Assembly (NCBI GenBank): GCA_958295495.1
Contig: OY282352.1
Span: forward strand, 4,222,049-4,286,048
DNA from: an uncultured Latescibacterota bacterium
GTDB taxonomy: Bacteria > Latescibacterota > UBA2968 > UBA8231
DNA length: 64,000 nt
Direction of reading: 5' to 3'
The notes beneath the pieces were generated by a model, which worked only from the letters and a program-made list of their open reading frames with translations, ran no database searches and was not told the origin of the DNA. Within the stretch, counting starts at the first letter, position 1; each line of letters begins with the position of its first letter. This document shows positions 696 through 52,457 of the stretch, in pieces. A program made the position numbers and the translations under genes.

Positions 696-1028
696 ATGCT
701 AGTGCCCCCTCAGCCAAAGATATACCATATTGTTCATCTGGACCGGCTCAAATCCATTATTGCAGACAACTATCTCTGGTGCGACGCGGAGATACTTAAA
801 CGCCAGCCTCCCGGCACCACGATTGGCATGAACAACATCAAGCAGCACCGCCTCAAGAAGCTCCTGAGCAGTCATCCAGACCTGTGCGTAGGCGACTGTG
901 TGCCATTCTACTTCTGTCCGCGTTCTGTTATGCTCTACGTGATTTACCGTGCGAATGACCCGGCATTGACCTATCGCGGCGAACAAGACCCCATCGTTCA
1001 TCTGGACATACCTGATTGGTATTATTGA
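696..1028 (+). CDS. darT: DarT-like (DUF4433) ssDNA ADP-ribosyltransferase toxin, half-length copy (110 aa), probably inactive
   Basis: KIYHIVHLDRLKSII and VPFYFCPRSVMLYVI match the N-terminal half of DUF4433/DarT. Family members are about 200 aa, so the C-terminal half is absent. It lies directly upstream of a DarG-like macrodomain gene. Confidence 0.65.
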   Translation: MLVPPQPKIYHIVHLDRLKSIIADNYLWCDAEILKRQPPGTTIGMNNIKQHRLKKLLSSHPDLCVGDCVPFYFCPRSVMLYVIYRANDPALTYRGEQDPIVHLDIPDWYY

Positions 1029-1047
1029 CAGCAAAAGGAGGAGGACC

Positions 1048-2136
1048 ATGATCAAATACAAGACCGGCGACATCCTCGCGGAAGATGCCGAAGCTCTGGT
1101 CAACACCGTCAACTGCGTCGGGGTCATGGGGCGCGGCATCGCGCTACAGTTCAAGCGTGCCTTTCCCGAGAACTTCAAAGCCTACGCCGCCCGGTGCAAG
1201 CGCGACGAAATGCAGCCGGGGCAGGTGTTCGTATTTGAGACGGGGCAACTTATCAATCCCCGTTACATCATCAACTTTCCCACCAAACGGCACTGGCGGG
1301 GCAAAAGCCGCATGGAAGATATCGAATCCGGTTTGGTAGCACTCGCAAAGGAGATACGGGTGCGCGGTATCCGCTCCATTGCCATCCCCCCGCTCGGTAG
1401 CGGACTGGGCGGCTTGGACTGGCCGGAAGTTCGCTGGCGAATGCAGGCAGCTTTGGAGAAACTTGACGACGTGCAGGTCGTCGTGTTTGAGCCGGGCGGA
1501 GGCCCGGTGGATAAAAGGGCCAATCGTTCTCGTGCGGTCCCGAAAATGACAGCGGGCCGGGCCGCGCTTATCGGGCTAATGGACCGCTACCTTCGCGGTC
1601 TGTTGGATCCATTCATTACCCTGCTGGAAGTACACAAGCTCATGTACTTCATGCAAACCGCTGGCGAGCCGTTGAGCCTGCGATTCGCCAAAGGCGATTA
1701 CGGACCTTATGCCGAAAACCTCCGGCACGTCTTGCATGCCCTTGAAGGACACTTTGTGTCCGGCTACGCAGACGGAGGCGATGCTCCCCACAAAGAATTG
1801 GAACTGGTGCCGGGTGCGCTTGAGGATGCACACACCTTGCTCGCAAACGCCCCCCAAACGTCCGCCCGCTTTGAAAAGGTGTCCGCGCTCGTTGAGGGAT
1901 TCGAGTCGGCCTTCGGCTTGGAATTGCTAGCCACCGTCCATTGGGTTGTTCGCGAGGAGCAAGCATCTACCTTTGCCGAGGTCGCCGAGCGAACCTATAC
2001 GTGGAACGAGCGAAAGAGACAGTTCACCCGCCGACAACTCGGCATTGCCCTTGACGTGCTCACCGAGAAGAACTGGATACTTGGCGTCAAGCGTTGTATG
2101 ACGGGATTTGAGCCGAGTGAGAGACCGAAACCCTAG
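1048..2136 (+). CDS. darG: DarG-like antitoxin (N-terminal macrodomain plus C-terminal DarT-binding-type domain)
   Basis: Macrodomain signature TGDILAEDAEALVNTVNCVGVMGRGIALQFKRAFPEN...IAIPPLGSGLGGLDW, followed by a C-terminal extension of about 200 aa. A strong RBS (AAGGAGGAGG) precedes ATG 1048. It sits 19 nt after the DarT-like ORF. Confidence 0.8.
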   Translation: MIKYKTGDILAEDAEALVNTVNCVGVMGRGIALQFKRAFPENFKAYAARCKRDEMQPGQVFVFETGQLINPRYIINFPTKRHWRGKSRMEDIESGLVALAKEIRVRGIRSIAIPPLGSGLGGLDWPEVRWRMQAALEKLDDVQVVVFEPGGGPVDKRANRSRAVPKMTAGRAALIGLMDRYLRGLLDPFITLLEVHKLMYFMQTAGEPLSLRFAKGDYGPYAENLRHVLHALEGHFVSGYADGGDAPHKELELVPGALEDAHTLLANAPQTSARFEKVSALVEGFESAFGLELLATVHWVVREEQASTFAEVAERTYTWNERKRQFTRRQLGIALDVLTEKNWILGVKRCMTGFEPSERPKP

Positions 2137-2138
2137 TT

Positions 2139-4694
2139 TTACCCCCGCGCCCAGTGGACCAACCCCATTTCCAAGGGATTTTGCAGGTCGGGGTGCGAGG
2201 GCACCACGCGCAGGGTGTAGCCGTGCGAGCCGGCCGCCGCGCATGTGAAGGTGCCGACGAAGTGGTAGGTGCCGTCGCCGTTGTGGCCGGCCAATTTCAG
2301 CGGGTACACCTCGGTCTGGGCGAACTCGCGCTGGGCGTTGAGGCGGCCGGCGTAGATCTCGACGCGGACATCCTCAGGCGCTAGCTCGCCCAAGGCCACC
2401 GCCGCGCACAACGGCACCTGCATCCCCACCTTGAGCAGCCGCGGAAATTCAGCATCCACCGCGCCGATCTGGACCTGCGCCCACTTGGAGCGCACGTGCG
2501 ACTTCCAGTGGGTCAGCCGCTGGACCCGCTCGCGGTCGGCCGCCAATTCTTCAAAGCGGGCTTGCCCAGGCAAGTAGAACCCCTCGACGTACTCGCGCAC
2601 CATGCGATGCGCGTTGTACTGCGGCGCAAGCTGGGCGATGGTCTCCTTCATGCGGCCGATCCAACCGCCGGGCAACCCGTCCGCATCGCGCTGGTAGAAG
2701 AGCGGAATCACCTCGGTCTCTAGTAGGTCGTAGAGCGAGTTGGACTCGACCTCGTCTTGGTAGTGCTCGTCGTCGTAGTCCTCGCCGCGGCCAATGGTCC
2801 AACCAGCGTGCTTGTCGCAGGCTTCGTCCCACCAGCCGTCGAATACGCTGACGTTGAGCACGCCGTTGACCGCGGCCTTCATGCCAGACGTGCCCGAAGC
2901 CTCCAAGGGGCGGCGGGGGTTGTTGAGCCAGACATCGCACCCTTGCACCAAGTAGCGGGCGAGGTTCATGTCGTAGTCTTGCAAAAAGAAAATCCGGCCA
3001 TTAAAGGGCGCTTGCCGTGCGAGGTGGACGATTTGGCGGATCAGCTCCTTGCCAGCGTCGTCGCGGGGGTGGGCCTTGCCGGCGAAGAGAATCTGCAAGG
3101 GCTGCTGCGAGTCGGAGAACAGGGCCTTGAGCCGCTCGATATTGCGGAAAATCAGGTTGCCGCGCTTGTACGTGGCAAAGCGGCGGGCAAAGCCAATGGT
3201 CAGCACCTCGGGGTCGAGCCGCGCCAGGGCCCGTTCAATTTTGGCGGCCGGCGCGCCATAGCTTTGCATCTGCTGGCGCAGGTGATGGCGGGTTACGTCA
3301 ATCAGCCGCTTGCGCCGGTGCTGGTGCGTGTCCCACAGGGCGCGGTCGGGGATGTGATAGACCGGGTCCCAATCGCGCTCGTGGGCCGATGCAAAGTGCC
3401 AAGCGTCGCCGAGATGGCGGTCCAACAGTTCGGCCATTTCCAGCGAAACCCACGTGTGGAGATGGACGCCGTTGGTGACGTGGGCAATGGGGATCTCGTG
3501 CTCTGAAAAGTCGGGCCACAGGCCCTGCCATATACGGCGGCTAACCGCGCCGTGCAGGCGACTGACGCCATTGGCCCGACCTGAGAGCCTGAGTGCCAAG
3601 ACCGTCATGCAGAAGTCGGCGTGGGAATCGCGGGGGTCAACCCGGCCCAAGCCGATAAATTCCTCGTGCGACAGGCCGAGCCACTCGCGAAAATGGCCCA
3701 AGTGCGCCTCGACCAAGTCCGCCGGGAACCAGTCGTTGCCCGCCGCGACCGGGGTGTGCGTGGTGAACACATTGCCCACTATGCTGGCCTCGCGGGCCGT
3801 GGCAAACGAATAGCCGTGCTCGGCCATTAGCCGGCGAATCCGCTCTAGAGCTAAAAAGGCCGAGTGCCCCTCGTTGATATGGCAAACGGTGGGTTCGACG
3901 CCCACGGCTTGGAGGGCGCGCAGGCCGCCGATGCCGAGGAGGATCTCCTGCTGGATGCGCATGGCCGCGTCGCCGCCGTAGAGGCGGGCGGTAATATCGC
4001 GGTCCGCAGGGGCGTTTTCGTCGAGGTTGGTATCGAGCAAATAGAGCCCCACCCGGCCCACCTGCACCTGCCAGAGCCGCGCCTGCACCAAGCCGTGGGC
4101 AAAGGGAACCTCAATGGTCAGGTGCTCTCCGTCGCGGGCGTGGACCGGCTGCACGGGCATCTGGTAGAAGTCGTTTTCCGGGTTTTGCTCTATCTGCCAG
4201 CCGTCGGCGTTGAGAGCTTGGTGGAAATAGCCCTCGCGGTAGAGCAAGCCGACCCCGACGAGGGGGACGCCTAGGTCGCTAGCGGCCTTGAGGTGGTCGC
4301 CGGCGAGTACGCCCAAGCCCCCAGAATAGATGCGGAGACTCTCGGTCAGGCCGAATTCCGCCGAGAAGTACGCAACCTGTAACGGGCTCTCGCCGTGCGT
4401 CTGGCCAAACCACGCCGCATCTGACAAATAGCCCTCGAATTGTTCGCGGACGCGCTCGATGCGACCCCGCAGTTGCTCGTCGGCGATAAGGGCGTCGAGC
4501 TGGTCCGGCCGCAGGGAAGCCCAAAAGCGCAGGGGATCGCGCTGGCTCTCGGTCCAAGTTTCCGGGTCGAGCTGGTAGAGGGTGCGAATGGTTTCCTTGC
4601 TCCAAGTCCACCAGAGGTTGTGCCCCAGCTCCCACAGCGGCGTCAGTTGCTCGGGCAGGGACGGAACGATATTGAGGCGATATAGAGGCTTCAT
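2139..4694 (-). CDS. glgP: Alpha-glucan (glycogen/maltodextrin) phosphorylase, GT35 family with DUF3417-type N-terminus
   Basis: From ATG 4694 the product reads MKPLYRLNIVPSLPEQLTPLWELGHNLWWTWS. The PLP-lysine motif EASGTSGMKAAVNG is present. The ORF-track start at 4925 adds 77 non-homologous residues, so I use the internal ATG. Confidence 0.9.
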   Translation of the reverse strand: MKPLYRLNIVPSLPEQLTPLWELGHNLWWTWSKETIRTLYQLDPETWTESQRDPLRFWASLRPDQLDALIADEQLRGRIERVREQFEGYLSDAAWFGQTHGESPLQVAYFSAEFGLTESLRIYSGGLGVLAGDHLKAASDLGVPLVGVGLLYREGYFHQALNADGWQIEQNPENDFYQMPVQPVHARDGEHLTIEVPFAHGLVQARLWQVQVGRVGLYLLDTNLDENAPADRDITARLYGGDAAMRIQQEILLGIGGLRALQAVGVEPTVCHINEGHSAFLALERIRRLMAEHGYSFATAREASIVGNVFTTHTPVAAGNDWFPADLVEAHLGHFREWLGLSHEEFIGLGRVDPRDSHADFCMTVLALRLSGRANGVSRLHGAVSRRIWQGLWPDFSEHEIPIAHVTNGVHLHTWVSLEMAELLDRHLGDAWHFASAHERDWDPVYHIPDRALWDTHQHRRKRLIDVTRHHLRQQMQSYGAPAAKIERALARLDPEVLTIGFARRFATYKRGNLIFRNIERLKALFSDSQQPLQILFAGKAHPRDDAGKELIRQIVHLARQAPFNGRIFFLQDYDMNLARYLVQGCDVWLNNPRRPLEASGTSGMKAAVNGVLNVSVFDGWWDEACDKHAGWTIGRGEDYDDEHYQDEVESNSLYDLLETEVIPLFYQRDADGLPGGWIGRMKETIAQLAPQYNAHRMVREYVEGFYLPGQARFEELAADRERVQRLTHWKSHVRSKWAQVQIGAVDAEFPRLLKVGMQVPLCAAVALGELAPEDVRVEIYAGRLNAQREFAQTEVYPLKLAGHNGDGTYHFVGTFTCAAAGSHGYTLRVVPSHPDLQNPLEMGLVHWARG

Positions 4695-43354: not shown

Positions 43355-44773
43355 ATGGACGAGATAACACTCAAGAACTTCCGCTGTTTCCGCGAAGAGC
43401 AGACCGCCCGCCTCGCACCGCTGACGCTGCTCATTGGCGAGAACAGCACGGGCAAAACTTCTTTCATGGCGATGATTCGGGCACTGTGGGATGTCGCCTA
43501 TGGACGAGCCGACCCGGATTTCAAAGAGGAGCCCTACGACCTCGGTAGCTTCGACGAAATCGCCCACCACAGAGGGGGACGGGGTGGCCGGGCGGATACC
43601 TTTGAGGCGGGATTCAAGGTCGCCCCAAGAGCTGTGCGCGGGAAAAGACGACACACCGACCCTAACGAACAACCCTATCTCTTTGAGGTGGCTTTCAAGA
43701 AAAAGGGGACCGTGCCTAGCCCTGTGAAGATGCGGCTTTCTAACGAAGATGCTTGGGGCAAGGTCCTGCTTGAAGACCAATCTTGGCAGGCCAGCCTCGG
43801 AACGTTAAGAGGGGTTTGGAAGTTTCCCGATGCCTTCCCAGACTTATCAGATGCCGGTATCAACTCGACATGGCTCTTTAGCGAATACTATCTAAGACAT
43901 CGGGAGATGGTTGGAGATCGAGAAAGTGAAGCAGAGCCAATCACATTTCAAGGTTCTGAGTTGCCTACTGACAAAGATTGGGAGCTAATTGACCAACTTG
44001 TCGAGATTCACAGACGGAGGCGTGCTGAATATTACAGACAGCGGCCTTACGCCAGTGCCCCCGTCCGTTCCAAGCCCCAACGCACCTACGATCCCGCACG
44101 CCCAACGCGGGACCCGGAAGGCGATTACATTCCGATGTATCTCGCAGATATGTTTTTTCAGGACAAAAGAAAATGGAAAAATTTCAAAGGAGCACTTGAG
44201 AAGTTCGGTCAAGAGTCTGGGCTATTCGATGAGATTTCGGTCAAGTCCTTCGGAGGGAAGGCAAGCGAACCGTTTCAAGTGCAAATCAGAAAATTCAGCG
44301 GCAAGGTCAAAGGACCTCAACGCAACCTGATCGACGTCGGCTATGGTGTAAGCCAAGTTCTGCCTCTTGTCACTGAGTTACTCCATGGCGAGTCCCTCAT
44401 GGATCTGTTCAGCGGCATCCCCCCGTCAATATTCTTATTGCAACAGCCGGAGGTGCATCTTCACCCCAGTGCCCAAGCCGCCTTGGGCAGCTTGTTCTGC
44501 CAAGTCGCCAAGCCAGAACGCCAATTAGTAGTCGAGACCCATAGCGACCACCTGCTCGACCGGGTGCGGATGGACGTGCGCGACGGCACAACGCCGTTGA
44601 AACCCGACGATGTGTCCATTCTGTTCTTTGAGCGTAAGGATTTGGACGTGCATATTCACTCGCTCCGAATCGACGAAGAGGGAAACATCGAAGGCGCACC
44701 CGATGGCTACCGAAACTTTTTCTTGGCAGAAACGGCGCGGTCTCTATGGAAGAGACAGTCTATAGGGACCTGA
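43355..44773 (+). CDS. AAA ATPase (ABC/SMC-like head, DUF3696-type C-terminus)
   Basis: ITLKNFRCFREEQTARLAPLTLLIGENSTGKTS (Walker A), FLLQQPEVHLHP (Walker B-like QPE.HLHP), VVETHSDHLL (H-loop). The C-terminal segment SILFFER...IHSLRIDEEGNI follows. Confidence 0.8.
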   Translation: MDEITLKNFRCFREEQTARLAPLTLLIGENSTGKTSFMAMIRALWDVAYGRADPDFKEEPYDLGSFDEIAHHRGGRGGRADTFEAGFKVAPRAVRGKRRHTDPNEQPYLFEVAFKKKGTVPSPVKMRLSNEDAWGKVLLEDQSWQASLGTLRGVWKFPDAFPDLSDAGINSTWLFSEYYLRHREMVGDRESEAEPITFQGSELPTDKDWELIDQLVEIHRRRRAEYYRQRPYASAPVRSKPQRTYDPARPTRDPEGDYIPMYLADMFFQDKRKWKNFKGALEKFGQESGLFDEISVKSFGGKASEPFQVQIRKFSGKVKGPQRNLIDVGYGVSQVLPLVTELLHGESLMDLFSGIPPSIFLLQQPEVHLHPSAQAALGSLFCQVAKPERQLVVETHSDHLLDRVRMDVRDGTTPLKPDDVSILFFERKDLDVHIHSLRIDEEGNIEGAPDGYRNFFLAETARSLWKRQSIGT

Positions 44774-47404: not shown

Positions 47405-47703
47405 ATGACATCAAATCGAGACGAACGAGAAGACGACGGTCGATGGATTGCCGAAATCGTCGAGATGCCCGGTGCTATAGCAATCCTAGATCATTCAAGC
47501 CTGGATGTCACGCCTAAAGGCGCGGTGAAGCCCGCTTGCGCGGGCATGACTTCTCATAGGCAGAAAAGACCGGGCCGATGAACATGCCATGCTTTCAAGT
47601 CATGTAGGATTGCTATATGACATATAGCTCGACCATTGGCGACCGCAAAGTGGACCGGAATTCATCAATTTATCGTTTCAGGCAGCATGAACAGGTGGCC
47701 TAG
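47405..47703 (+). pseudogene. Small HicB/UPF0150-like ORF interrupted by a MITE-like element
   Basis: MTSNRDEREDDGRWIAEIVEMPGA resembles a HicB N-terminus (dG.w.A.i.e.PG). Removing 47478-47617 restores one 52-codon frame ending at TAG 47701-47703. Confidence 0.35.
47476..47617. mobile_element. MITE-like element: 13-bp perfect terminal inverted repeats including TA/TA flanks
   Basis: TATAGCAATCCTA (47476-47488) and TAGGATTGCTATA (47605-47617) are exact reverse complements. There are imperfect subterminal matches and an internal GCCCGC-TTGC-GCGGGC hairpin. No ORF is present. TA at both ends is compatible with a TA target-site duplication. Confidence 0.55.
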
Positions 47704-47733: not shown

Positions 47734-47763
47734 TTGACACAATCGGCGCTCTGCCGGTATTTT
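47734..47763 (+). promoter_or_regulatory. Candidate sigma70-type promoter of the thrS leader
   Basis: TTGACA (47734-47739), an 18-nt spacer, then TATTTT (47758-47763). The predicted start would fall at or next to the leader ATG 47771. Confidence 0.35.
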
Positions 47764-47770
47764 ATACGGC

Positions 47771-47881
47771 ATGATTTCTGCTCTGCTTACAGTCGCGTCC
47801 GCACAGCGCCCCAGCGGTTTCCCGGTGGGACAGGTCCCGTCCCCTACCACTGCTACGACTACGACTATACGCGCTGGATAG
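47771..47881 (+). CDS. Candidate thrS leader peptide (36 aa) with a Thr-codon run
   Basis: Hand translation: MISALLTVASAQRPSGFPVGQVPSPTTATTTTIRAG*. Codons 26-32 are ACC ACT GCT ACG ACT ACG ACT. No Shine-Dalgarno sequence is seen. The ORF ends 32 nt before an intrinsic terminator. Confidence 0.4.
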   Translation: MISALLTVASAQRPSGFPVGQVPSPTTATTTTIRAG

Positions 47882-47912
47882 CGACGGACTAAAGCTCATT
47901 TTGGACCTTTCT

Positions 47913-47945
47913 CCGCTGTCGGCTACGATGACAGCGGTTTTTTTT
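47913..47945 (+). terminator. Intrinsic terminator in the thrS 5' leader
   Basis: CCGCTGTC (47913-47920), a 9-nt loop, GACAGCGG (47930-47937), then T8 (47938-47945). It ends 18 nt before the thrS ATG, and the AAGGAG RBS lies downstream of it. Confidence 0.75.
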
Positions 47946-47962
47946 ATGCCAAGGAGTGCGTC

Positions 47963-49876
47963 ATGTTGATCAAGGTACCGCAAGGACAAGCCATCGAATA
48001 CCCCGGCGAGGGCACGCTCAAGGAGATCCTCGCCCAAGAGAACAAGGCACTGTTGAAGCAATACATCGCCGCCCGCGCCGGCGACGAGCGCATCGACTTT
48101 CACACCCGGCTCGGCAGCGAAGCGGAAGTCGAGCTCATTCCTTGGGATGCAGACGAGGCCGCTTGGATCTACCGCCACAGCATGTCGCATGTGTTGGCGC
48201 AGGCCGTGCTGCGCCTCTTCCCGGACGCGCAACTGGCGATCGGGCCGGCCATTGACGACGGCTTCTACTACGACTTTGACGTGGCCGCGCCCTTTACGCC
48301 CTCCGACTTGCAGAAGATCGAGCGGGAGATGAAGCGGGTCGTCAAGCAAAACCACAAGTTCGAGCGCATCGATGTTGCGCGCCAAGAAGCGGAAGAGCTG
48401 GTTGCCCACGCCCCGTACAAACAGGAGATCCTCGCCGACTTGGAAGAAGGCCAGACCTTGTCCTTTTACAAAGACGGCGAGTTCATCGACCTGTGCCGGG
48501 GGCCGCATATACTCGGCACAGGTCAAGTCAGGCACTTCAAGCTCCTGAGCGTGGCTGGGGCCTATTGGCGCGGCCACGAGAGCCACAAGATGTTGCAGCG
48601 CATATACGGCACGGCCTTTGTCTCCCGCGAGAGGCTCGACCACCATCTGGCGATGCTGGAGGAGGCCAAAAAGCGCGACCACCGCACGCTAGGCAAGCAA
48701 CTGGAGTTGTTCACCTTTGACGACGAAGTGGGGCCGGGTTTGCCCCTGTGGTTACCCAAGGGGGCGGTGCTCATCGACGAACTGGAGGACTTGGCCCGCC
48801 ATACCGAGCGCGCGGCCGGCTATCGGCGCGTGCGCACGCCGCATATCTGCAAGGAGTCCATGTATGAGCGCAGCGGCCACTTGCCGTACTATGCCGCGTC
48901 CATGTTCCCGCCCATGGAGTTGGAGGGGGTCAAGTACTACCTCAAGCCCATGAACTGCCCCCACCACCACAAAATTTTCGCCGCCGCCCCGCGCTCGTAC
49001 CGCGACCTGCCCCTGCGCTTGGCCGAGTATGGCACGTGCTATCGCTACGAGCAGTCGGGCGAGTTGTTCGGCTTGATGCGGGTGCGCTCGTTGCAGATGA
49101 ACGACGCGCACATCTACTGCACCCTCGACCAGTTTGAGGAGGAATTTCTCGCCGTCTGCCAGATGTATTTGCACTATTTCGAGTTGTTCGGCCTAAAGGA
49201 GTACCTGATGCGCTTGAGCACCCACGCGCCCTCGGGCTTGGGGGCAAAGTACGTCGATGACCGCGAGAAGTGGCTCCGCACTGAGGACATGGTGCGCGGC
49301 GCAATGGCGAGGGGCGGGATCAACTACGAGGAGGTACCCGACGAAGCCGCCTTCTACGGCCCCAAGATCGACGTCGAGGTTTGGAGCGCAATCGGCCGGC
49401 AGTTTACGATCGCCACCAATCAAGTCGATTTCGCCGTGCCCAGCCGCTTCGGCTTGTCGTACACCAACGCGGCCGGCGCAGAGGAGACGCCCATCTGCAT
49501 CCACCGCGCGCCGCTGGGTACGCACGAGCGCTTCATCGGCTTCTTGATTGAGCACTACGCCGGTGCCTTCCCGGTGTGGTTAGCACCTGTGCAAGCGGTG
49601 GTTTTGCCCATTGCCGAGCGCCACGCCGAGTACGGGGGCCAGCTCCATCAGCAGCTTCTCGCCGCTGGGATCCGGGCCGAACTCGACGCGGCCAGCGAGA
49701 CCCTCAACAAGCGCATCCGCCAAGCGCAGACGCAGAAGGTGCCCTATATGCTAATCGCCGGGGACCGCGAGGTCGAAGAGGGCAAGGTGGCGATCCGGCA
49801 GCGATCCGGCGCACAACTCGACCCGCTCCCGCTAGCCGAGGCCGTCGCCCTGATCGGCACTGAGATTAGTAGCTAG
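47963..49876 (+). CDS. thrS: Threonine--tRNA ligase
   Basis: TGS-domain start MLIKVPQGQAIEYPGEG, the editing domain with HSMSHVLAQAV, the class II core (RVRSLQMNDAHIY, GPKIDV) and the anticodon-binding C-terminus. Confidence 0.95.
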   Translation: MLIKVPQGQAIEYPGEGTLKEILAQENKALLKQYIAARAGDERIDFHTRLGSEAEVELIPWDADEAAWIYRHSMSHVLAQAVLRLFPDAQLAIGPAIDDGFYYDFDVAAPFTPSDLQKIEREMKRVVKQNHKFERIDVARQEAEELVAHAPYKQEILADLEEGQTLSFYKDGEFIDLCRGPHILGTGQVRHFKLLSVAGAYWRGHESHKMLQRIYGTAFVSRERLDHHLAMLEEAKKRDHRTLGKQLELFTFDDEVGPGLPLWLPKGAVLIDELEDLARHTERAAGYRRVRTPHICKESMYERSGHLPYYAASMFPPMELEGVKYYLKPMNCPHHHKIFAAAPRSYRDLPLRLAEYGTCYRYEQSGELFGLMRVRSLQMNDAHIYCTLDQFEEEFLAVCQMYLHYFELFGLKEYLMRLSTHAPSGLGAKYVDDREKWLRTEDMVRGAMARGGINYEEVPDEAAFYGPKIDVEVWSAIGRQFTIATNQVDFAVPSRFGLSYTNAAGAEETPICIHRAPLGTHERFIGFLIEHYAGAFPVWLAPVQAVVLPIAERHAEYGGQLHQQLLAAGIRAELDAASETLNKRIRQAQTQKVPYMLIAGDREVEEGKVAIRQRSGAQLDPLPLAEAVALIGTEISS

Positions 49877-49881
49877 CGGTC

Positions 49882-50577
49882 ATGTTCCGCCGCATCCGCG
49901 ACATCGCCGGAATTTTCTGGAAATTCCGCTACTATCTCCTCTGCACGGGGCTGGCGCTGGCCTTTTGGGACACCGCGTTGATCAAGCCGTTCCGCTTCTT
50001 TGTGGTGCTGGTGCATGAGGTCAATCACGCGGCCGCAGCCCTGCTCACCGGCGGCGAGGTCGTCGAAATCCGCACCCATTGGAATGAGTCCGGGCACACC
50101 CTGACGAAGGGCGGCTTTTTCCCGCTGATTAGCGCGGCCGGCTACGTGGGGTCGGCACTTTGGGGGGCGTTGCTGATGTACACCGCGCTTTATCCGCAGG
50201 CGCAGCGGTTGGTGTTGCTGGGCATCGGCGCGGCCTGCGCCGGGATGACCCTGAGCTACACGCCGCTGGGGGGCATCGATTCCGTCTTGGGGATCGGCGG
50301 CGGGCTGGTCTTGTGCGTCATGGCCTGCAAGTCGCGGCGGATGGCGCGGGTCGGCGCGGGGTGGATGGGGGTAATGCTCTGCCTGTACAGTCTCTACGAC
50401 TTCCGCACCGACCTATGGTACTATCCAGAGCGGACGGACGCCGGGCTGCTGTCGGCCTATTGGGGGCTGGATCCCTTGCAGGTGCCCTATCTGGCCTATC
50501 TGATTGCCTTGAGCTGGGTGCTGGTGTCGCTGTCGTGCATGTATCGGGCGATGCGCGCCGTGGTTCTCAATCGGTGA
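49882..50577 (+). CDS. M50B-like integral membrane metallopeptidase family protein
   Basis: VLVHEVNHAAAALLTGG (HExxH) within a polytopic hydrophobic protein of 231 aa. Confidence 0.65.
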   Translation: MFRRIRDIAGIFWKFRYYLLCTGLALAFWDTALIKPFRFFVVLVHEVNHAAAALLTGGEVVEIRTHWNESGHTLTKGGFFPLISAAGYVGSALWGALLMYTALYPQAQRLVLLGIGAACAGMTLSYTPLGGIDSVLGIGGGLVLCVMACKSRRMARVGAGWMGVMLCLYSLYDFRTDLWYYPERTDAGLLSAYWGLDPLQVPYLAYLIALSWVLVSLSCMYRAMRAVVLNR

Positions 50578-50687
50578 TTTAGACAATACTACACTGCCGG
50601 CGGCGGGTTTCTTATTGCGAACAGCTTGCAATTGAGTGCAACTGTCCGATGCGCTACGTTCACCTAGCAAAAGAGAGGAATGTAACC

Positions 50688-52457
50688 ATGCGAATGAGTC
50701 GGCTTTTCAGTCAGACCTTGCGCGACGTTACCGCCGACGCGGAGGTCGCCAGTCATCAACTCTTGTTACGAGCGGGCTTTATCCGCCCGCTGGCCAGCGG
50801 CATCTTCAGCTATTTGCCCCTCGCGCAGCGGGCGATGCGCAAAATTGAGGACATTATCCGCCGCGAGATGGATGCCATCGGCGGCGAGGAAATCACCATG
50901 CCGGTGGTGCATCCAGCCGAACTCTGGCAGCGGACCGGGCGTTGGTACGCAGTGGGTGCGGAGATGAGCCGCTTTAAGGACAAAAACGACCGCGACATGG
51001 TGCTGGCGATGACCCATGAAGAAGTCGTAGCCGACTTAGTCAGCCGCGAGATCAAGTCCTACAAGCAGCTGCCCCAGTTGGTCTATCAGATCCAGACCAA
51101 GTGGCGCGACGATCCCCGCCCCCGCTCGGGCCTCATCCGGGTGCGCGAGTTCACCATGAAGGATTCCTACAGCCTCGACGCCGACTGGGAGGGCCTCGAC
51201 AGGCAGTACCGCGCCCATTACCAGCACTATTTCAACATCTTCCATCGCTGCGGCCTCGACGTACTCGCGGTCCGCTCGGACACTGGGATGATGGGCGGTG
51301 AGCTGGCCCACGAATACATGTACCTGACGCCGATCGGGGAAGACACCCTGCTCTTGTGCGACGGCTGTGGCTACGCGGCCAACCGCCAGATTGCCACCTT
51401 TGCCAAACAGGCCAATCCCGCAGAAGCGCCCGCCGCGCCAGACAAGATCGCCACGCCTAATACCACGACCATTGAGGAGCTGACCGCGCTGCTCGGCATT
51501 CCCGCGCACAAGACCGCTAAGGCGCTCTTTGTGATGGCCACCGTCGGCGATGGTCGCGACAAGCAGGACGCGTTTGTACTGGCGGTTGTGCGCGGCGACA
51601 TGGAAGTCAACGAGACCAAGCTGGCCAACGCGGTCGGGGCGCTCGAGATGTGGCCGGCGCGGGAAGAGGAGATACGTGCCATCGGCGCAGAGCCGGGCTA
51701 TGGATCGCCCATCGGCGTCGAGGGAGCGCTGGTCGTCGTCGATGATTCGGTGGCGTCCTCGCCCAATCTGGTGGCCGGCGCCAACGAGCCGGGCTACCAC
51801 CTCGCAAATGTAAACCACGGCCGCGACTACAAGGCCGAGGTGGTCGCCGATATTGCTGTCGCCAGACAAGGCGATGGCTGCCCTAACTGCGGCGCGGCGC
51901 TGCGGGAATCGCGCGGGGTGGAAGTGGGCAACATTTTCCAGCTAGGCACCAAGTTCACCGCGGCGCTGGGCGGGGACTTTCTCAACGCCGAGGGCAAGGC
52001 GCAGCCGGTCGTCATGGGGTCTTATGGGATCGGAGTGGGGCGGTTGCTGGCCTGTATCGCCGAGGAGTACCACGACGAAAACGGCTTGGTGTGGCCCATA
52101 GCCATCGCGCCCTACCCAGTTCACATCGTCCTCCTCGCCAAGGGCGAAGGCGCAGCGCAAGACGCAGCCGAGCGGCTCTACGCCGATCTGCTGAAGCGCG
52201 GTATTGAAGTTCTCCTCGACGACCGCCGAGAAAACGCAGGGGTCAAGTTCAACGACGCCGACCTGATTGGGCTACCAGTGCGGGTGACGGTGGGGGATCG
52301 CGGTTTGCAGCGGGGAATTGTCGAGGTCAAACTGCGGCGCGAAAAAGAGCGGCGCGAAACGCCGGTGGAGCAGGCGGTAGAGTACGTGGTGGAACAGGTG
52401 GAGAGGTTGCAACGCGAGTTGGACGAGCGAGTAGTGGAAGTGGAGTACCAAGAATAA
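50688..52457 (+). CDS. proS: Proline--tRNA ligase (bacterial type with INS editing domain)
   Basis: The product reads MRMSRLFSQTLRDVTADAEVASHQLLLRAGFIRPLASGIFSYLPLA..RVREFTMKDSYS.. The start is moved to ATG 50688 (RBS GAGAGGA). Confidence 0.95.
   Translation: MRMSRLFSQTLRDVTADAEVASHQLLLRAGFIRPLASGIFSYLPLAQRAMRKIEDIIRREMDAIGGEEITMPVVHPAELWQRTGRWYAVGAEMSRFKDKNDRDMVLAMTHEEVVADLVSREIKSYKQLPQLVYQIQTKWRDDPRPRSGLIRVREFTMKDSYSLDADWEGLDRQYRAHYQHYFNIFHRCGLDVLAVRSDTGMMGGELAHEYMYLTPIGEDTLLLCDGCGYAANRQIATFAKQANPAEAPAAPDKIATPNTTTIEELTALLGIPAHKTAKALFVMATVGDGRDKQDAFVLAVVRGDMEVNETKLANAVGALEMWPAREEEIRAIGAEPGYGSPIGVEGALVVVDDSVASSPNLVAGANEPGYHLANVNHGRDYKAEVVADIAVARQGDGCPNCGAALRESRGVEVGNIFQLGTKFTAALGGDFLNAEGKAQPVVMGSYGIGVGRLLACIAEEYHDENGLVWPIAIAPYPVHIVLLAKGEGAAQDAAERLYADLLKRGIEVLLDDRRENAGVKFNDADLIGLPVRVTVGDRGLQRGIVEVKLRREKERRETPVEQAVEYVVEQVERLQRELDERVVEVEYQE

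Follow-up and report, generated by a model that had tools for sequence, protein, structure and literature searches.

A conserved threonine-codon leader upstream of thrS, a probable transcription attenuator in uncultured Latescibacterota-type bacteria

Feedback on thrS, the gene for threonyl-tRNA synthetase (ThrRS), is diverse in bacteria: a tRNA-mimicking translational operator acts in Escherichia coli, and a T-box in Firmicutes. The pheM-pheST operon of E. coli is an experimentally established case of a synthetase operon placed under a leader peptide rich in cognate codons. Here we describe the region upstream of thrS in a 64,000-nucleotide (nt) stretch of contig OY282352.1 (GCA_958295495.1), hereafter the window, from an uncultured Latescibacterota bacterium, where a short open reading frame (ORF) containing a run of threonine (Thr) codons is followed by an intrinsic terminator. 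We consider it likely, from comparison of the window with related sequences, that this leader is a classical ribosome-mediated transcription attenuator coupling thrS to the supply of charged tRNA-Thr. The first-pass annotation of the window had already proposed a ribosome-mediated attenuator built from these elements, and the proposal is strengthened by an alignment of related thrS upstream regions, a check suggested with it, in which the Thr run, the reading frame and the terminator are all conserved.

The leader of the E. coli thr operon (thrL) shares with the window a short leader ORF with a run of Thr codons and an intrinsic terminator, and it has the competing antiterminator and the decision by ribosome position that we propose here. 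It mixes Thr and Ile codons, and the run in the window is likewise followed by Ile, though this Ile is not conserved in relatives. However, thrL controls the biosynthetic genes thrABC and not a synthetase, and the window leader matches neither the sequence nor the structure of its Rfam family (RF00506). Unlike thrL, the leader of the window is probably leaderless in its initiation, and the 5' strand of its candidate antiterminator includes the stop codon. The logic of pheM-pheST is the one proposed here, with low charged tRNA leading to more synthetase, but the amino acid, the synthetase and the phylum differ and there is no homology.

The T-boxes of Firmicutes thrS and thrZ have the same target gene, and the input (tRNA-Thr charging) and output (terminator read-through) that are proposed here. 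They differ in sensing uncharged tRNA directly, by a specifier codon and the T-box sequence and independently of translation, and none matched here. No Rfam match was found for the window leader (E up to 10), for the whole window (gathering threshold) or for eight relatives (E up to 1). The T-box (RF00230), Thr_leader (RF00506), Phe_leader (RF01859) and other known riboswitches were rejected for lack of a covariance-model match; a hit to a T-box or another riboswitch is what the first-pass annotation had named as speaking against an attenuator. The E. coli thrS operator likewise provides feedback on thrS through the 5' leader, but it acts on translation initiation, without terminator or leader ORF, with ThrRS binding mimics of the anticodon arm beside the Shine-Dalgarno sequence. 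No YU-NGU-AR motif was found in 10 representative leaders, and with no mimic of the tRNA-Thr anticodon loop the operator model is inapplicable.

Leader-peptide attenuators have been predicted for trpS and leuS of Streptomyces (PMC1262725), and leader peptides were proposed from RNA-seq before alaS, thrS, trpS and leuS in S. lividans (PMC8079986). The thrL proposed before thrS in S. lividans has a leaderless transcript, two Thr codons and no clear U-rich terminator (PMC8079986). It resembles the window in its target gene and in the leaderless initiation that we propose. In contrast, the window has six Thr codons in its run (3 to 13 in relatives), a canonical terminator and conservation across many genomes, and the lineages are unrelated (Actinobacteria versus Latescibacterota-type metagenome-assembled genomes). 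The design had been called unusual for a tRNA synthetase, which it is, but it is not unprecedented, given pheST and the Streptomyces trpS, leuS and thrS leaders. The mechanism is conventional and well known, while the target gene is unusual and the lineage is uncultured and sponge-associated. To our knowledge, almost nothing is known on gene regulation in Latescibacterota-type bacteria. A 2010 paper by Lopatovskaya et al. (Mol Biol 44:128) reportedly covers the attenuation of aminoacyl-tRNA operons, and thrS attenuators in other taxa may have been predicted earlier. The locus would add a conserved third solution for thrS, attenuation by cognate codons, in sponge and marine bacteria of Latescibacterota type known only from metagenomes. 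In automated annotation, the small ORF and the regulatory terminator described here would be overlooked or taken for the end of an operon.

Layout and conservation of the leader

All features of the leader lie on the forward strand, and the promoter, the 36-codon ORF, the Thr run, the terminator and thrS were each found where the first-pass annotation had placed them. The sigma-70-type promoter (47734-47763) consists of a -35 box TTGACA (47734-47739), an 18-nt spacer and a -10 box TATTTT (47758-47763), and scores 10 of 12 consensus matches in a consensus scan. The 3' end of its spacer is the conserved motif CTGCCGGTA. The leader ORF (47771-47881) has 36 codons and a UAG stop (47879-47881), encodes MISALLTVASAQRPSGFPVGQVPSPTTATTTTIRAG, and starts with an ATG 7 nt past the -10 box, with no Shine-Dalgarno-like sequence 5' of it. 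Codons 26 to 32 (47846-47866) read ACC ACU GCU ACG ACU ACG ACU, that is, Thr-Thr-Ala-Thr-Thr-Thr-Thr, with six Thr in seven codons and an Ile codon (AUA) next; this run is the proposed site of ribosome stalling.

From the stop codon to the terminator stem we measured 31 nt, one fewer than first reported. The 5' arm of the terminator (47913-47921, CCGCTGTCG, RNA CCGCUGUCG) is here called region 3, which with the first loop bases extends to 47913-47923. A 7-nt loop (47922-47928) separates it from the 3' arm, or region 4 (47929-47937, TGACAGCGG, RNA UGACAGCGG), and a U8 tract follows (47938-47945). The stem has nine pairs, six of them G-C, with a predicted energy of -14.4 kcal/mol. Between the U-tract and the thrS ATG there are 17 nt, including the thrS Shine-Dalgarno AAGGAG (47951-47956), which leaves no room for a separate thrS promoter. 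The thrS ORF (47963-49876) encodes 637 aa with the Pfam domains tRNA_SAD, tRNA-synt_2b and HGTP_anticodon, as in a class II threonyl-tRNA synthetase with editing (SAD) and anticodon-binding domains.

These leader features exceed chance expectation. At least six Thr within eight codons occur at only two places in all six frames of the window, the leader being one of them. There are 14 sites with a hairpin and a T-run, most of them within long ORFs; the leader terminator is the only one with more than six T, and the only strong one directly 5' (17 nt) of a long ORF. Among about 150 unrelated bacterial loci, the best eight codons 5' of thrS usually contain 2-3 Thr, against 6-8 in the relatives of the window.

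The upstream regions of thrS were gathered from a genome scan, a metagenome scan and contigs encoding ThrS homologues. The closest ThrS genes are 93-95% identical and belong to metagenome-assembled genomes, most labelled Candidatus Latescibacterota and one Gemmatimonadetes, and related sequence is present in sponge metagenome runs. More than 25 related loci, with ThrS 60-100% identical to that of the window, have a homologous leader before thrS. This leader is present at every locus with at least 82% ThrS identity, and also in L010 (60%). Thirteen distinct sequences, referred to as the close family, comprise the window, L001-L005, L171, L174, L175, L176, L179, L181 and L182. More distant leader peptides are MSALFPVAPVRRCVAPPAGKMSAPSTDSTTTTATTRAG in L172 and L173 (ThrS 85%), MSIPLLIASAKGGVASPAGKISAPSTTATTTALV in the marine group L161-L170 (84%), MSRIEKKCSLFADSTATVPTCPG in L081 (82%) and one ending in TIPTTSTRSTTHVYKAVGPTV in L010 (60%), each followed by a hairpin with a U-tract and then by thrS. 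A nucleotide profile of the close family matches L172, L081, the L161 group and L010 at E = 5e-18 to 2e-4, so that these form one homologous leader family; it has no further match within the window.

The promoter is conserved in all 13 close-family members and in L081, L161, L172 and L010. Directly abutting the -10 hexamer, the sequence CTGCCG(G/A)TA (47749-47757) is kept from the window to L010, including L081, L161 and L172. This conservation goes beyond what would be expected for a promoter spacer, and the sequence might extend the promoter or bind a protein.

Coding signals in the leader ORF

Two fixed points bracket the ORF in the close family: the ATG keeps its position relative to the promoter, and the UAG is contained in the invariant block GGATAGCGACGGACTAAA (13 of 13). 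Eight lengths from ATG to UAG occur, ranging from 96 to 120 nt and each preserving the frame; much of the variation comes from the Thr run, which has 4-13 codons (3-13 across all relatives). Indels in the ORF outside the run are all multiples of three: -12 in L005 (at the start), -6 in L001, -15 in L181 and L182, and +12 in L162. The non-coding spacer, in contrast, takes indels of 1-2 nt, leaving 80, 81, 82 or 83 nt from the stop codon to thrS. The peptides themselves are widely diverged (for example, MISAMLTVASA...TTTTTTTTTMCAG, MSALFPV...STDSTTTTATTRAG, MSIPLLIASAK...STTATTTALV, MSFS...TIPTTSTRSTT...), with the Thr run 3-4 codons before the stop in all of them, apart from L010, which has a looser Thr-rich stretch ending 10 codons before the stop.

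Within the run, codon positions 1 and 2 are fixed as AC and the third position is free (ACU 45, ACG 43, ACC 40, ACA 5). In the long ORFs of the window, Thr is encoded by ACC (50%), ACG (34%), ACU (9%) and ACA (7%). The rare ACU is therefore over-represented in the run, at 34% of Thr codons against 9%. Selection acting on coding, and specifically on Thr, is strongly supported by these sequence comparisons. ACG and ACU often alternate in the runs, and two tRNA-Thr isoacceptors would then be sampled.

The start signals point in the same direction. The ATG lies exactly 7 nt after the -10 hexamer, without a Shine-Dalgarno sequence, in 13 of 13 close-family members. In L005 the first ATG is missing through a 12-nt deletion, and codon 5, an in-frame ATG, now stands at the same 7 nt from the -10 box. 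The leader ORF is thus probably translated from a leaderless mRNA whose ATG is at or beside the transcription start, a possibility raised at first sight from the absence of a Shine-Dalgarno sequence and now backed by the invariant spacing. The diverged relatives have the same promoter followed by a 5' region of 50-130 nt, and L172, L161 and L010 have GGAGG or AGGAG 8-10 nt 5' of the leader ATG. A start signal maintained in two ways, as leaderless ATG or as Shine-Dalgarno, is hard to explain unless the ORF is translated. Translation of the leader ORF is indicated indirectly by the conserved frame, the indels outside the run and these start signals together.

An unrelated leader was found in Verrucomicrobiota. 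In L062, a metagenome-assembled sequence carrying this label, a 15-codon leader MVMAEFTMTTTTGWR is followed by a hairpin with U8, about 30 nt before thrS. Two relatives (84% and 80% ThrS identity) have the leaders MIFSVTTTSFE and MSAGLTTTTF with the same terminator. All three have a -35 box of TTGC type, a 17-nt spacer and a TAnnnT -10 box with the ATG 6-8 nt further on, which suggests a leaderless start. L062 has a clear antiterminator and L183 a weak one; none is evident in L184. Judging from these sequences, the same Thr-leader solution appears to have arisen separately in Verrucomicrobiota.

Terminator, candidate antiterminator and proposed mechanism

The terminator stem is invariant and its loop variable (UACGA, CGUGA, UCCAA, UACAA, UGCGA, UGCAA) in the 13 close-family sequences, and L010 has two compensatory changes in the stem. 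A near-identical strain (runs X1 and X2) has T47912C and T47938G, which turn a U-U mismatch at the base of the stem into a C-G pair. A 10-bp stem with a shorter U-tract (T6 or T7) is found in all other close-family members, the 9-bp stem and U8 of the window being an outlier. By its pattern of changes, the terminator behaves like a selected hairpin.

The antiterminator first suggested for this leader was a long-range helix in which CAGCGG (47812-47817) pairs with CCGCUG (47913-47918), and AGGUCC (47832-47837) with GGACCU (47903-47908). CAGCGG, AGGTCC and GGACCT are present in the window, but the helix was abandoned, being unconserved and lying behind the stalled ribosome. CAGCGG reads CAGCCG in L001 and falls within the 15-nt deletion of L181 and L182, and AGGTCC and GGACCT are specific to the window, relatives having GCAACCT at the latter site. 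As both CAGCGG and AGGTCC are 5' of the Thr codons, they would be exposed with or without stalling and cannot report it.

The mutually exclusive pairings that folding had been expected to reveal were obtained by calculation, with a different partner. A candidate antiterminator 5' strand, region 2 (47873-47883, forward strand, GCUGGAUAGCG), overlaps the last two sense codons and the UAG, and the candidate 3' strand (47914-47923, forward strand, CGCUGUCGGC) lies within region 3. To represent nascent RNA, we folded the sequence prior to the terminator 3' arm, starting just downstream of a ribosome stalled in the run. Such folds pair the stop-codon region with the terminator 5' arm in the window and in every relative. 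In the window, 47873-47883 and 47914-47923 form 10 pairs interrupted by a single bulge. The nascent fold is calculated at -15 kcal/mol for the window and at -17 to -20 for the other family members, and the terminator at -14.4 to -17.9. A second, shorter register, CGACGG (47882-47887) with CUGUCG, is the pairing predicted in L172, L081 and L161. When the fold is started downstream of a ribosome at the stop codon, the region 2 strand is absent and the antiterminator pairing is gone.

The predicted antiterminator 5' strand lies at or within about 20 nt of the stop codon in every Latescibacterota-type lineage, and the region 2 partner changes across lineages wherever region 3 changes. At stem positions 4 and 8, L010 changes all three strands together (G-C to A-U at 4, U-A to C-G at 8). 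Loop positions 11-13, unconstrained by the terminator, read G-C, C-G in the family, A-U, U-G, A-U in L172 and A-U, C-G, C-G in L081. This co-variation across lineages is reasonable, not conclusive, support for a stop-codon antiterminator, which seems a better candidate than the helix first suggested.

A candidate region 1 (47792-47801, forward strand, GUCGCGUCCG, GUCGC-N-UCCG) in codons 8-11 could pair with region 2 (GCGAC, UGGA), and this pairing might favour the terminator on ribosome-free RNA, although this is uncertain. Minimum-free-energy structures of the full-length leader contain this pairing for L003 and L181; the window has it in a shifted register. In A2, 97% of cells are paired, and L005 has one compensatory change (UCUG/CAGA), with controls not significant; L172 and L161 do not share the pairing. 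The partner of region 2 in the full-length folds of L172 and L010 is instead the Thr-codon region itself, as in textbook attenuators. The block ACAGTCGC-N-TCCGCA (47789-47802, codons 7-11) is kept even at synonymous sites in 13 of 13 members. Similar blocks are seen in L172 (GGTCGCGCCCGTA) and L161 (GATCGCGTCCGCA), and the pairing of this block with region 2 is not conserved outside the close family.

From this arrangement we infer the transcription start site, translation of the ORF, stalling, a kinetic choice of structure and the direction of regulation, and the attenuator would work as follows. Transcription from the promoter at 47734-47763 would start at about 47770, and a ribosome would start the leader ORF at the 5'-terminal AUG (47771). 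When Thr-tRNA is plentiful, the ribosome would pass the Thr codons and reach the UAG at 47879, covering region 2 (47873-47887). Region 3 (47913-47923) would then be free to pair with region 4 (47929-47937), and the hairpin with U8 would end transcription 17 nt short of the thrS start. With Thr-tRNA in short supply, the ribosome would stall in the run (47846-47866), mainly at its first codons (47846-47857), leaving region 2 exposed. Region 2 would capture region 3 upon its emergence, no terminator would form and RNA polymerase would enter thrS.

The Thr run varies from 4 to 13 codons between close strains, whose ThrS are 86-94% identical to that of the window. It is conceivable, though we consider it rather doubtful, that run length is an evolvable set-point, with slippage tuning the readiness to stall and the output of ThrRS in each strain as a contingency-like rheostat. 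Together with the leaderless start this would make a minimal sensor of promoter, ORF and switch, with no ribosome-binding site, in two unrelated phyla. With 3-13 Thr codons and both leaderless and Shine-Dalgarno starts, the family would offer a natural series for relating attenuator threshold to run length and ribosome position.

Alternative explanations and neighbouring sequences

Several observations weigh against the attenuator, some concerning the run and others the switch. Slippage of an (ACN)n tract gives changes in multiples of three, so the preservation of frame within the run is by itself weak evidence; on the question of frame, the indels outside the run are more informative than changes of run length. 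L081 keeps only three Thr codons. The Thr leader is absent from L006, L007, L008 and L082 (70-74% ThrS identity), so the element was lost or never gained in part of the clade. The available metatranscriptome contigs, which are assembled and come from divergent strains, are uninformative on the 5' and 3' ends of the leader. In L006 (2800-3005; Latescibacterota, 74% ThrS identity), a homologous terminator, CCCGCTGTC-TGAC-GACGGCGGG-T5, stands before thrS with no Thr-run leader. An ORF crosses this terminator, reading ACG ACG across the loop and 3' arm, and ends in a stop codon that overlaps the start of thrS (ATGA). L006 may represent a decayed attenuator or another design.

The first of these points leave room for an ORF and a terminator that are real but do not sense Thr, as a constitutive partial terminator or an upstream ORF setting a basal level, with the run being an ACN repeat or part of a Thr/Cys-rich peptide like those of ribosomally synthesized and post-translationally modified peptides (RiPPs). 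The microsatellite-like variation of the run between 3 and 13 codons, the Cys-containing ending ...TTTMCAG of many peptides, the retention of the ORF in L081 despite its short run and equilibrium folding, which always falls on the terminator side, would fit this explanation. However, otherwise dissimilar leaders, including those of the unrelated Verrucomicrobiota clade, are all enriched in Thr and always stand before thrS, and free third codon positions are unexpected for a repeat maintained at the nucleotide level. The window, the L161 group and L010 lack the Cys, and no modification enzymes are near the leader, whose neighbours in the window are a sulfatase, thrS and an M50B peptidase. The RiPP-precursor reading was rejected, Cys being unconserved and the gene context unfit. 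We regard an ORF that does not sense Thr as unlikely, and prefer the Thr-sensing attenuator.

The other points concern the switch. Lineage by lineage, in GC-rich sequence, duplex energies give p = 0.00-0.27 and stand out only in L010, L081, L062 and L181, the window having p = 0.11-0.27. Within the close family the antiterminator helices never vary, and with near-invariant helices in 13 members covariation counts say little. At equilibrium, with the ribosome footprint imposed, the terminator is more stable than the antiterminator by 8-19 kcal/mol; it is always the equilibrium structure, and the switch must accordingly rely on kinetics, like other attenuators. In the window itself, region 3 can also pair in silico with a far-upstream copy, ACAGCG (47803-47808). 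A ribosome that stalls only at the last Thr codon would already reach into region 2, and region 1, about 45 nt 5' of the Thr run, would lie beyond the cover of a single stalled ribosome, in contrast to the trp paradigm.

Stalling might then be sensed with another output, such as exposure of the RNA to Rho after loss of transcription-translation coupling, mRNA stability or translation of thrS. The modest antiterminator statistics, the odd placement of region 1 and the lack of a clear antiterminator in L184 of Verrucomicrobiota are compatible with this. On the other hand, a canonical hairpin with a U-tract comes right after the leader in all lineages, the partners in regions 2 and 3 co-vary, and the thrS Shine-Dalgarno is unsequestered in all predicted structures. 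An output of this sort appears quite improbable to us beside termination.

A sensor other than the ribosome with an incidental ORF, be it a divergent T-box, another riboswitch or a ThrRS-binding operator like that of E. coli thrS, would agree with the established mechanisms of thrS and with a GC-rich leader of about 175 nt with several possible hairpins, but we find it very improbable, because neither a T-box nor any other Rfam family matched, no lineage has a YU-NGU-AR hairpin like the tRNA-Thr anticodon loop, the mid-leader is freely deleted in L181 and L182, conservation is limited to the ORF frame, the Thr run, the stop-proximal block and the terminator, and the minimum-free-energy fold of the whole leader (z = -0.5) is no stabler than shuffled sequence, so that the leader is not one rigid structure.

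Regarding the surroundings of the attenuator, the gene order 3' of the leader is thrS, an M50B-like peptidase (in the stretch 49882-52457) and proS. The order thrS-peptidase is common to several relatives, and proS comes next in L174 and L175 as in the window. Further upstream, an AbiEii-like ATPase (AAA_15/AAA_21) ending in a DUF3696 tail is encoded at 43355-44773 and points to a defence-system gene.

The interval from the sulfatase gene to the thrS promoter contains a 142-bp element (47476-47617) with 16-nt inverted repeats at its ends (TATAGCAATCCTAGAT / ATGTAGGATTGCTATA), present as a single copy within the window. In runs X1 and X2, contigs reach depths of 760-3481 over the element against about 20 in the flanks, roughly 40-170 times as much, and break at its ends. 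In the sponge-metagenome run X8, one contig skips 47475-47651, about the span of the element, which suggests a site without it. Short contigs over the element are abundant in two metatranscriptomes. It looks like a high-copy mobile repeat resembling miniature inverted-repeat transposable elements.

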